Assembly: GCF_013167455.1 (NCBI RefSeq)
Contig: NZ_CP038328.1
Length of the DNA stretch: 64,000 bases
Reading direction: 5' to 3' (one strand)
Source of the DNA: Escherichia coli O157:H7
GTDB lineage: Bacteria; Pseudomonadota; Gammaproteobacteria; Enterobacterales; Enterobacteriaceae
Shown here: piece after piece, positions 2,758 to 61,423 of the stretch
Layout of the letters: the number at the start of each line of letters is the position of its first letter
Position numbering within the stretch: position 1 is the stretch's first letter
Program-made: the position numbers and the translations under genes
Notes under the pieces: generated by a model
Seen by the model: only the letters and a program-made list of their open reading frames with translations
Databases searched by the model: none
What the model was told of the DNA's origin: nothing

Positions 2758-2982
2758 TCCTGACTTAATGCCGCAAGTTCGCCAAATCGACCTGGATTAA
2801 CCTCCGTCCAGGTTCGATGACCTTCTTAATACTGCTTATCTACCCGCCTGATATTGTTCAAAAATAATACTAATCGCAGTTTGTGTTAAAACGGCGGCTT
2901 AGCTTTATGAGATTATTCTTATCGTCCCTTCAAGAGCTAAGCCACTGAGAGTGCCGGAGATAAGCGCCGGATGGGGTAGAAA

Positions 2983-3020
2983 CCCTTAAGCCTGTGTCGC
3001 ACAGACTTAAGGGTTTTCTT
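2983..3020 (+). terminator. Rho-independent terminator hairpin (possibly 3' end of sRNA RydB)
   Basis: Near-perfect inverted repeat cccttaagcctgtg / cacagacttaaggg followed by ttttcttatttc on + strand, about 225 nt past ydiH stop. Confidence 0.5.
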
Positions 3021-20561: not shown

Positions 20562-20656
20562 TGTTACTTACCTGTACGCATTCTTTCGAATTTAGTGTTA
20601 TCAGATAAGTTTGGTTGAGATTTTTAGAATTTGAGAAATTTCAGACAGGGATGAAA

Positions 20657-20674
20657 AGGGCGCTAACCGCCCTT
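20657..20674 (-). terminator. Putative ydhR terminator hairpin
   Basis: gggcgctaaccgccc inverted repeat just downstream of ydhR stop; on minus strand followed by ttttcat. Confidence 0.45.
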
Positions 20675-20686
20675 GATTAAATTCTG

Positions 20687-20992
20687 TCAGGCGAGTTTTG
20701 CCTGATTGATTTGACTCAGTGGCTCATTGACATCGAAAACTTTGGCGACAACTTCCTCAACGCCGAGTTTTTTCAGTTGGGCAGTGTGTTTTTCCAGATA
20801 GGCAAGGGCGCTTTTTTCATCAGTGAAAAGGTAGATCCCACCGGCTTCGTGGTTCTTTTCACTTTCTGTCCATACCTTCCACAGAAAACCAGGTTCCTGA
20901 TTAATCGACTCTGCAAGTGGTTTAAGCTGCTCAGCCATTGCGTCGCCAAATGGGCCATTAAAAGCAAAATGAAGTTGTAACAAAGTTGCCAT
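20687..20992 (-). CDS. ydhR: Small uncharacterised protein YdhR (101 aa)
   Basis: 101-aa ORF; synteny. Confidence 0.7.
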
Positions 20993-21099
20993 AGCGATTC
21001 TCCTTCTGATAACGCATACGAAGACAGTGTAAATCTTTTAACGTATTGGATACAGAGAAGAAGCAGAGGGAAAAAGGAGAAGACCAGATTAACAAAATC

Positions 21100-21176
21100 T
21101 GGTGCGTCCGAGTGGACTCGAACCACCGACCCCCACCATGTCAAGGTGGTGCTCTAACCAACTGAGCTACGGACGC
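21100..21176 (-). tRNA. valV: tRNA-Val (GAC)
   Basis: Reverse complement reads GCGTCCGTAGCTCAGTTGGTTAGAGCACCACCTTGACATGGTGGGGGTCGGTGGTTCGAGTCCACTCGGACGCACCA; anticodon GAC; encoded CCA. Confidence 0.9.
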
Positions 21177-21180
21177 AGGA

Positions 21181-21257
21181 TGGTGCGTTCAATTGGACTC
21201 GAACCAACGACCCCCACCATGTCAAGGTGGTGCTCTAACCAACTGAGCTATGAACGC
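21181..21257 (-). tRNA. valW: tRNA-Val (GAC), second tandem copy
   Basis: Reverse complement reads GCGTTCATAGCTCAGTTGGTTAGAGCACCACCTTGACATGGTGGGGGTCGTTGGTTCGAGTCCAATTGAACGCACCA; 4-nt spacer from first copy. Confidence 0.9.
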
Positions 21258-21564
21258 AACGTTGTAGGTGACAACGGGGACGAATATTAGCGGCAGAGTG
21301 GGAAGGTGGCAAGAGGCAAAACGTAATTTTCTGCGCTATTTCGACCGTTTGCAGAGCTTTTAAGCAAATTGGCTATATTTTGTTGATTTGCAAGGGCGAT
21401 TTTTATTCAGGATCGCATTTACATCTGATACAACCCAATAATTCGTGTATCAGAGTTTAAACAGAGTTGTTTGCCACCATCTCAAATCTGTCGTGGATAA
21501 ATCCTCCGTAGCCTTTACACTTAGGTAGCAATAAAGGCACACAGATGCAGCAAAGGAATAAATC

Positions 21565-22821
21565 ATGGGATCTGATGCGAAAAACTTGATGAGCGACGGG
21601 AATGTGCAAATTGTTAAGACCGGCGAGGTCATTGGCGCGACGCAACTTACTGAAGGCGAGTTGATTGTTGAAGCTGGCGGAAGAGCCGAAAATACCGTGG
21701 TCACGGGGGCTGGCTGGTTGAAAGTGGCAACCGGTGGGATCGCCAAATGCACACAGTACGGTAACAATGGCACGCTATCGGTCAGCGACGGTGCCATTGC
21801 CACAGATATTGTTCAGTCCGAGGGAGGCGCAATTAGTCTCTCTACGCTCGCTACGGTTAATGGCCGCCATCCCGAAGGTGAATTCAGCGTTGATCAGGGT
21901 TATGCCTGCGGTTTGTTGCTGGAAAATGGCGGTAACCTGCGTGTACTGGAAGGACATCGCGCGGAAAAAATCATTCTCGATCAAGAGGGCGGCCTGTTGG
22001 TTAATGGGACAACCTCAGCGGTCGTGGTAGATGAAGGTGGTGAATTGTTGGTGTATCCAGGTGGGGAAGCCAGCAATTGTGAGATTAATCAGGGCGGCGT
22101 TTTTATGCTGGCGGGGAAAGCCAATGATACGTTGCTTGCTGATGGCACCATGAATAATCTCGGTGGTGAAGACTCTGACACTATTGTTGAGAATGGAGCC
22201 ATCTATCGTCTGGGGACGGATGGTCTTCAGCTCTACAGTTCCGGTAAGACGCAAAACCTGTCCGTTAATGTGGGTGGTCGGGCTGAAGTGCATGCCGGTA
22301 CGCTGGAAAATGCGGTAATACAAGGTGGAACAGTGATCCTGTTGTCACCCACCAGCGCGGACGAAAATTTTGTCGTAGAGGAAGATCGCGCACCGGTTGA
22401 ACTGACCGGGAGTGTTGCATTACTGGACGGCGCTTCAATGATTATTGGCTATGGCGCAGATCTGCAACAATCAACGATTACTGTACAGCAGGGCGGTGTA
22501 TTGATTCTCGACGGCAGTACGGTAAAAGGTGACAGTGTCACTTTCAGTATTGGTAACATCAATCTGAATGGCGGAAAACTGTGGCTGATCACTGGTGCGG
22601 CAACGCATGTGCAGCTGAAAGTGAAACGCCTGCGCGGAGAGGGAGCGATTTGCCTGCAAACCAGTGCGAAAGAAATTTCACCTGACTTCATCAATGTGAA
22701 AGGGGAAGTTAACGGGGATATACGCGTTCAGATAACAGATGCCAGTCGGCAAACTCTGTGTAACGCACTGAAACTACAGCCAGACGAAGACGGGATTGGC
22801 GCAACGCTCCAGCCTGCGTAA
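21565..22821 (+). CDS. ydhQ: Autotransporter-passenger-like (beta-helical adhesin-like) protein YdhQ, no beta-barrel domain
   Basis: 418 aa; degenerate Gly-rich repeats (..GGxxxxxV..NGG..) typical of AIDA/pertactin-type passengers. Confidence 0.75.
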   Translation: MGSDAKNLMSDGNVQIVKTGEVIGATQLTEGELIVEAGGRAENTVVTGAGWLKVATGGIAKCTQYGNNGTLSVSDGAIATDIVQSEGGAISLSTLATVNGRHPEGEFSVDQGYACGLLLENGGNLRVLEGHRAEKIILDQEGGLLVNGTTSAVVVDEGGELLVYPGGEASNCEINQGGVFMLAGKANDTLLADGTMNNLGGEDSDTIVENGAIYRLGTDGLQLYSSGKTQNLSVNVGGRAEVHAGTLENAVIQGGTVILLSPTSADENFVVEEDRAPVELTGSVALLDGASMIIGYGADLQQSTITVQQGGVLILDGSTVKGDSVTFSIGNINLNGGKLWLITGAATHVQLKVKRLRGEGAICLQTSAKEISPDFINVKGEVNGDIRVQITDASRQTLCNALKLQPDEDGIGATLQPA

Positions 22822-29848: not shown

Positions 29849-29894
29849 TCCATTTCACTCCAGACCCTAACTTCAGCTCCTGCAAAATCGCAAG

Positions 29895-29907
29895 GTAAAC
29901 GTTTGCC
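29895..29907. promoter_or_regulatory. PUR-box-like operator in purR leader
   Basis: gtaaacgtttgcc with AAACGTTTGC core, about 50 nt upstream of purR start. Confidence 0.4.
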
Positions 29908-30146
29908 TTTACACACCTTACGCACAACAAAAGTGTTGCGGTACGCCGGAAAAACGACACGGAGCGTCAGGAAGGGGTCAATGGCCAGTACGCAAATAGT
30001 GTAAGCGTGGAATTTTGGCCGATCTTGACGAAAAGGGGAAGTGGTAAAAACACTTATCATTATAAATGACGGGAGATTTTTTCATCACAGTGTGTAAAAA
30101 TGCGTAATATCACTTTTTGTGTGGTAATAAAAAAGGAGAAAACTTG

Positions 30147-30236
30147 ATGAGCACCGACCTTAAATTTTCACTGGTAACAACGATTATCGTCCTCGGTTTG
30201 ATCGTGGCCGTGGGTTTGACTGCCGCGCTGCACTGA
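30147..30236 (+). CDS. ynhF: Small hydrophobic protein YnhF (29 aa, single TM)
   Basis: ATG 30147 preceded by aaaaggagaa; encodes MSTDLKFSLVTTIIVLGLIVAVGLTAALH; below ORF-track length cut-off. Confidence 0.7.
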   Translation: MSTDLKFSLVTTIIVLGLIVAVGLTAALH

Positions 30237-30401
30237 TTTCCTCTCGAGGGAGCGCGTTCTCCCTCGCATCTCCTTCCTGTTTGTTAGCAAAATGGCAAAA
30301 GTGTTTTCTCTTTTTGTTATTTTCATTTTTTTGTGATTGCTGTCATGCTTTCGCCACTTTAATGAATATCGCGTAATGACGCGAAGAGGTGGAGATAAGG
30401 C

Positions 30402-58534: not shown

Positions 58535-61423
<2,889 letters not shown>

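Follow-up and report, generated by a model that had tools for sequence, protein, structure and literature searches.

The valV-valW locus of Escherichia coli O157:H7 is a native, unoccupied tRNA tandem with compensatory stem differences and a possible CCA-capturing trailer hairpin

INTRODUCTION

Prophages and islands in E. coli use tRNA integration sites such as selC, pheV, leuX, thrW, and ssrA. Two valine tRNA genes that lie 4 nt apart and differ at only a few stem positions therefore raise a double question: is such a tandem a site that mobile DNA occupies or has left behind, and what do the differences between its copies mean? We addressed this question for a pair of tRNA-Val(GAC) genes in an E. 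coli O157:H7 chromosome. The window, that is, the whole stretch of DNA that was analyzed, comprises 64,000 nucleotides. A preliminary description had judged the locus to be unoccupied. Here, we examine the identity of the two genes, the differences between them, the occupancy of the site, and the signals for transcription and processing, including the sequence downstream of the second gene.

RESULTS

Identity of the tRNA pair

In the 64-kb window, ARAGORN called only two tRNA genes, each a tRNA-Val(GAC) on the minus strand. Together with the Rfam covariance model, it bears out two head-to-tail 77-nt tRNA-Val genes, as previously described, and the 4 nt said to separate them lie at 21177-21180. 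The genes and their neighbors are as follows.

21181..21257, minus strand: valV, tRNA-Val(GAC), Val2B, acceptor strands GCGUUCA / UGAACGC (ARAGORN; Rfam tRNA model, 70.1 bits; equals K-12 b1665)
21177..21180, minus strand: 4-nt spacer UCCU between valV and valW (TCCT on the coding strand)
21100..21176, minus strand: valW, tRNA-Val(GAC), Val2A, acceptor strands GCGUCCG / CGGACGC (ARAGORN; Rfam, 69.6 bits; equals K-12 b1666)
20687..20992, minus strand: ydhR, putative monooxygenase, downstream core gene (ORF list, RefSeq annotation)
21565..22821, plus strand: ydhQ, AIDA-repeat adhesin-like protein, divergent upstream core gene (ORF list, RefSeq annotation)

Both tRNA matches are full-length, covering model positions 1-71 of RF00005, and their scores of 70.1 and 69.6 bits compare with a gathering score of 29. 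Both genes are 77 nt long and encode the CCA. The acceptor strings quoted in the preliminary description were read correctly: GCGTTCA...TGAACGC belongs to the upstream copy and GCGTCCG...CGGACGC to the downstream copy. Aligned with the K-12 genes, the upstream copy is exactly valV and the downstream copy exactly valW; indeed, valV, the UCCU spacer, and valW form one string identical to K-12 b1665/b1666 in the same order. The flanking core genes named earlier, ydhR and ydhQ, are likewise confirmed by the ORF list and the RefSeq annotation, and in K-12 MG1655 valV (b1665) and valW (b1666) also lie between ydhQ and ydhR. Over the 586 bp from the ydhQ start to the ydhR start, alignment with MG1655 revealed 3 SNPs, of which one is upstream of the -35 hexamer, one in the loop of the trailer hairpin, and one in the pyrimidine tract described below.

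The products of both genes are known as RNAs. The probes published for isolating tRNA-Val2A and tRNA-Val2B are exactly complementary to valW and valV, respectively, and both RNAs were physically purified from E. coli cells with such probes (PMC1851638); thus, both genes yield RNAs that have been purified from cells. Moreover, both tRNAs are listed as carrying acp3U47 (PMC6895100). Collectively, it is virtually certain that the locus is the native E. coli valV-valW operon, here in the O157:H7 chromosome. The pair is an already known textbook locus, and the preliminary description and its interpretation are correct.

Differences between the two copies

The two genes had been said to differ at several acceptor-stem and T-stem positions. 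The alignment of valV and valW gives exactly six differences, at gene positions 5, 7, 51, 65, 67, and 69, and all six are in stems. They form three pair swaps, in which U-A of valV is C-G in valW at 5:69, A-U is G-C at 7:67, and U-A is G-C at 51:65. Two of the swapped pairs belong to the acceptor stem and one to the T stem, and all are compensatory. Because of this compensation, both genes keep the same cloverleaf shape: 21 of the 21 stem pairs (7-bp acceptor stem, 4-bp D stem, 5-bp anticodon stem, and 5-bp T stem) are standard in valV and in valW, so that the cloverleaf fold is perfect in both copies. No difference is found in the loops, the anticodon or D arm, the variable loop, or at the discriminator base. 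The divergence is the classical Val2B/Val2A isodecoder difference and is purely compensatory.

To place this difference in a broader frame, we compared tandems of this tRNA across species by a pattern scan of one genome per species, in which the six variable positions and the spacer were left free. The scan yielded at least 120 loci, mostly from Enterobacterales with a few from other Gammaproteobacteria. The matches listed hold 271 copies at 120 loci, in arrays of 2 to 5. The three variable pairs are Watson-Crick in all 271 copies listed and occur in eight combinations. A 2B-type gene upstream of a 2A-type gene is the commonest order (54 of the 120 loci among the matches listed), and in 53 of those 54 loci, from approximately 20 genera, both genes are identical to those of E. 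coli. The spacers of the 2B-then-2A loci are pyrimidine-rich and 3-18 nt long, with UCCU found only in Escherichia among the matches listed.

Among the matches listed, the 120 species show 17 distinct variants, in which the cloverleaf is 100% paired in 357 cells; the pattern left the pairing partners of its free positions unconstrained, and variation outside the stems is under-sampled because most remaining positions of one gene half were fixed. Both partners change in six pairs and a single partner in none, a level of covariation that 0 of 500 shuffles reached, and pairing drops to 29-51% when the partners are slid. Beyond two copies, Val(GAC) arrays reach five in Proteus (Proteus alimentorum), while in Serratia, Rahnella, and Tatumella, arrays of three copies frequently show the alternating order A > B > A, suggesting that a two-gene unit was duplicated.

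Occupancy of the site

The whole window is colinear, with one mismatch, with the annotated O157:H7 record NZ_CP038414.1. Across the window, this record carries core genes, running from ydiJ, the suf operon, lpp, and pykF through ydhR, the two tRNA-Val genes, and ydhQ to the rsx operon and add. In the matching record, an internal stop makes ydhF (aldo/keto reductase, window ~42045-42941) an annotated pseudogene. None of the approximately 70 genes annotated in the 64 kb encodes an integrase or belongs to a phage. At the level of repeats, the 25-mer at the valW 3' end, with up to 3 mismatches allowed, matches only valW and valV in the window, and the 3' 15-mer, with up to 2 mismatches, matches only itself. 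The tRNA block and the rest of the window have no exact word of 12 nt or more in common; they share six 11-mers, against a chance expectation of ~4.5. Within 10 kb on either side, the direct-repeat families are short chance matches, the tandem itself aside. Elsewhere in the window, self-matches in a BLAST ladder mark internal tandem repeats of rsxC (58582-59197), with a period of ~96 bp and 88-92% identity.

The intergenic regions are colinear with those of K-12, with no strain-specific DNA between the tRNA genes and the conserved flanks, and only 3 SNPs in 586 bp leave no room for foreign DNA. The earlier statement that the flanks carry no integrase is thus upheld over the annotated 64 kb, and so is the statement that they carry no direct repeats, since a search for att-like sequences gave no second tRNA 3' end in the window. 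With integrase and att repeats absent and the intergenic regions K-12-like, the view that the locus is unoccupied stands.

The same holds for the species. Many O157:H7 chromosomes carry a 100% identical match to a 3.5-kb query taken from around the locus, and the query region is found in 5,425 of 5,426 complete E. coli genomes. An intact tandem, including the immediate flanks, was seen in 5,418 of the 5,426, and an intact junction between the valW 3' end and ydhR in 5,423. Presence in more than 5,400 independent complete genomes excludes an assembly artefact as the source of the tandem. A second "place" per genome in the BLAST counts presumably reflects an off-register alignment of valV on valW and was not taken as a second locus. 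The exceptions examined are insertion sequence (IS) events. In strain CEC96047 (NZ_AP026104.1), the leader and valV up to position ~74, nearly the whole gene, have given way to an IS3-family (IS629/IS1203-like) element; the replaced segment begins just past the -10 hexamer, so that valW remains alone and is split from the promoter by the IS. Some O157:H7 strains (F8798, RIMD 0509939) carry IS1203 between ydhS and ydhR, and in these ydhR is annotated with 324 nt rather than 306 nt. Collectively, the data support the conclusion that mobile elements have not occupied the valV-valW site here and practically never use it in E. coli.

One record labeled as a phage, "Escherichia phage 503046" (CP025887.1), carries the whole block. 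It was rejected as evidence for a phage-borne copy, because its ydhV-to-ydhQ segment follows the chromosome colinearly on either side of the tRNA genes. The remainder of this 23-kb record comprises ydbH-tynA-feaB, IS100, and tail-gene remnants, with many small indels, and the record appears to be a rearranged or mislabeled chromosomal contig and not a phage. The other phage matches are phage-borne tRNA genes at 70-90% identity and not attP fragments of valV or valW.

These observations also bear on whether the tandem could be the footprint of a past integration and excision, with one copy derived from an att site or brought in by an element. In favor of this reading, tRNA 3' ends do get duplicated or replaced by integrative elements, and the 3' acceptor strand takes part in two of the three pair swaps. 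However, both copies are full-length, and they also differ at positions 5, 51, and 7, in portions of the gene that a 3'-end att duplication leaves unchanged. The window holds no integrase, partial repeats, or foreign DNA; the identical pair occurs in 53 listed species, tandems of 2-5 copies being general in Enterobacterales; and the sole "phage" record with the block is the chromosomal contig CP025887.1. We give this explanation almost no credence and consider it effectively refuted, in favor of a native tandem.

Redundancy of the two isodecoders

The loss of valV in CEC96047 is a natural sign that this gene is dispensable. It has to be weighed against the idea that the two isodecoders are non-redundant and that selection keeps each for a property based on its stems, such as EF-Tu affinity, stability or processing rate, or toxin sensitivity. 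T-stem pairs tune EF-Tu binding, and in the EF-Tu version of this idea the difference would act through T-stem pair 50:64 (standard numbering). Two features of the comparison are in line with distinct roles. The 2B-then-2A order recurs in 54 of the 120 listed loci, 53 of them identical to E. coli, while spacer and trailer diverged freely, and adjacent repeats with 92% identity have escaped gene conversion over family-level divergence. On the other hand, the differences are strictly compensatory and fall outside the ValRS identity elements, which are A35/C36 of the anticodon and A73. Moreover, arrays of identical copies are found at no fewer than 29 of the 120 listed loci, 21 of them all-2A-type, and CEC96047 has valW alone, valV having been lost entirely. 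The same pattern could arise without distinct functions if each stem pair were under strong purifying selection and conversion were rare. In the literature on Val2A and Val2B, we found no functional difference, only listings, probes, and pooled abundances. Distinct roles are thus an unlikely explanation, and we retain that of a purely compensatory isodecoder difference.

Promoter, leader, and processing

Upstream of valV, the following elements were assigned.

21307..21312, minus strand: -35 hexamer TTGCCA (promoter scan; identical in K-12; fits the starts in PMC2190699)
21284..21289, minus strand: -10 hexamer TAATAT, followed by a G+C-rich discriminator, TCGTCCCC (promoter scan, sequence)
21258..21277, minus strand: transcription start (C residues at ~21276-21277) and ~19-nt 5' leader (primer extension in PMC2190699)

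TTGCCA-17-TAATAT is the sole sigma-70-like site that the promoter scan found on the minus strand within 20600-21900. Stable-RNA promoters under stringent control typically have such a G+C-rich discriminator, and we infer stringent-type control of the valV-valW promoter. The -10 hexamer ends 27 nt upstream of valV, and a C run follows 7-8 nt beyond it, at -19 to -22. Primer extension has identified two C residues, located 18 and 19 nt upstream of mature valV, as starts (Mohanty and Kushner, PMC2190699), which the promoter fits to within 1 nt. The leader contains a hairpin, CGUUGU-CACCU-ACAACG (-4.7 kcal/mol, z = -3.1), that is also present in the fold of the full precursor and stops 2 nt short of the RNase P site of valV.

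The maturation of this transcript is well documented. No RNase E site is present in the UCCU spacer; valV and valW are separated by RNase P alone, which makes their 5' ends and, at the spacer, cuts on the 3' side; the precursor has a half-life below 30 s, and the 3' trailer of valW is removed mainly by PNPase and RNase II (PMC2190699). The same paper states, as data not shown, that ydhR does not share a transcript with valV-valW. Later papers from the same laboratory extend these findings to the full set of seven valine tRNAs and deal with the essential role that RNase P plays (PMC4176162, PMC7049720, PMC2241853). Expression, processing, and charging were followed in K-12 derivatives, and the O157:H7 sequence is identical through both genes.

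Trailer hairpin and termination

Downstream of valW, the trailer contains two elements.

21083..21103, minus strand: trailer hairpin ACCAGAUU-UUGUU-AAUCUGGU, whose 5' arm starts with the valW 3' ACCA (scan, fold, comparison)
21048..21082, minus strand: pyrimidine-rich, G-poor trailer tract CUUCUCCUUUUUCCCUCUGCUUCUUCUCUGUAUCC (sequence)

In a permissive terminator-like scan, the hairpin has 8 pairs, 3 of them G-C, a loop of 5, and the tail CUUCUCCUUU. Its folding energy is -9.4 kcal/mol (z = -4.6), and in both the minimum-energy and the centroid fold of the full precursor, it directly adjoins the acceptor stem of valW. As an intrinsic terminator, it is weak by usual standards.

Based on the comparison with related genera, the hairpin is a recurrent feature. 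Citrobacter, Enterobacter, Lelliottia, and relatives have a longer hairpin, GCACCA...UGGUGC, of -14 to -19 kcal/mol and with a different stem interior; its tail is AAAUCCUC in Enterobacter and UUUUCUCC in some Citrobacter. Strong hairpins anchored on the CCA end occur at 30 of 119 loci among the matches listed, compared with 1.2 +/- 1.0 in shuffled tails. For 21 distinct hairpins, 93% of the cells pair, a percentage that is inflated because these hairpins were taken from loci chosen for having one. Three stem levels change on both sides (G-C, U-A, A-U), giving 18 doubly changed cells, which 0 of 500 shuffles reached, and the slide controls pair at 26-44%. The independent evidence for the hairpin is its enrichment over shuffles together with the clade-specific stems.

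The 2007 paper reported no predicted secondary structure in the sequence downstream of valW and, from the lack of a terminator, inferred Rho-dependent termination, with data not shown (PMC2190699). The tract at 21048-21082 would, by its composition, suit Rho loading, which agrees with that proposal and with the ~35-nt-longer precursor described there. This trailer-bearing precursor, VWT, is ~35 nt longer than VW1 and, in cells that lack PNPase and RNase II, persists even though RNase P is active (PMC2190699). Sequestration of the RCCA end by the hairpin would explain why VWT accumulates although RNase P is active. We tentatively propose that the trailer hairpin, which covaries and captures the CCA end, may be a cis element that is conserved yet missed by the literature and that serves processing or termination; we regard this as possible and would not yet call it probable.

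A different candidate in the same region is a match to HPnc0260 (Rfam RF02194) at 20976-21138 on the plus strand, which, if real, would be an antisense RNA over the ydhR start and the valW 3' end and the true feature of interest. The match is full-length, with 106.9 bits against a gathering score of 59, and HPnc0260 has been annotated via Rfam in Pectobacterium and Piscirickettsia. When its parts were scanned apart, however, the 39-nt reverse complement of the valW T arm and acceptor gave 53 bits and the A/U-rich flank 39.3 bits, both below 59, and on the same segment of the model, valV in reverse complement reaches 36.6 bits. The promoter scan found no promoter-like site on the plus strand in 20600-21900, and the reports elsewhere are model matches, not transcripts. 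As the match beyond the tRNA complement stays below the gathering score, we did not accept HPnc0260 as a gene. A genuine antisense RNA here is very improbable, and the match is likely a model artefact, to be expected downstream of similar tRNAs in many genomes. The window also contains two small RNA families that are expected for E. coli, STnc550 in the purR-cydH region (29849-30239, plus strand, 396 bits) and rydB after menI/ydiH (2924-2984, plus strand, 78 bits).

DISCUSSION

The tandem in O157:H7 is the valV-valW operon in its native place, and the examination is useful as a negative, namely, that this tRNA site is empty and bears no trace of a former mobile element. The two genes are old tandem duplicates, set apart only by three compensatory swaps of stem pairs. 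The mature Val2B and Val2A, both with anticodon GAC, read the valine codons GUC and GUU. That the Val2B-then-Val2A pair is sequence-identical across approximately 20 of the enterobacterial genera listed, without homogenizing, may be of interest to specialists in tRNA processing.

Combining the sequence with the published work, the following course of expression may be proposed. One sigma-70 promoter would give a dicistronic transcript of a ~19-nt leader, valV, UCCU, valW, and a short trailer. An RNase P cut at the 5' end of each tRNA would be the only endonucleolytic step between valV and valW, and 3'-to-5' exonucleases would then trim the four spacer nucleotides left on valV as well as the valW trailer, the latter mainly by PNPase and RNase II. 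In the trailer, the ACCA of valW (GCACCA in Citrobacter and Enterobacter) may pair with the downstream UGGU at 21083-21086 (UGGUGC in those genera) and so hide the RCCA end, with which RNase P has to make contact. With this end sequestered, the trailer-bearing precursor would resist RNase P until PNPase and RNase II have taken off the trailer, which would impose an order of 3' before 5' processing. Alternatively or additionally, the hairpin may be a pause or termination signal of the operon. If true, the CCA-capturing hairpin would provide a structural reason for the published resistance to RNase P, again a matter for those who study tRNA processing.

Compared with the K-12 operon, the O157:H7 locus has the same tRNAs, spacer, promoter hexamers, and neighbors, and nothing functional differs. 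The arrays of other Enterobacterales (Serratia, Rahnella, Tatumella, Proteus) have the same core in head-to-tail arrangement, short pyrimidine-rich spacers, and the same variable stem pairs; in contrast to E. coli, they contain 2-5 copies, show further pair states (for example, 7:67 U-A, 51:65 A-U), and are in some cases alternating or homogeneous. Similar to the occupied tRNA sites such as selC and pheV, valW has an encoded CCA end, and it faces a small non-essential downstream gene. Unlike them, valV-valW has neither integrase nor att repeat, and the only disruptions seen are IS elements. Among the RNase P-dependent tRNA operons (leuQ leuP leuV, secG leuU, and metT; Mohanty and Kushner 2007/2008), valV valW is the founding example, and these operons share with it a short spacer without an RNase E site and the removal of the trailer by PNPase and RNase II. 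Finally, whereas Mohanty and Kushner considered the valW trailer to be unstructured, we find in it an 8-bp, ACCA-containing hairpin that covaries in related genera.
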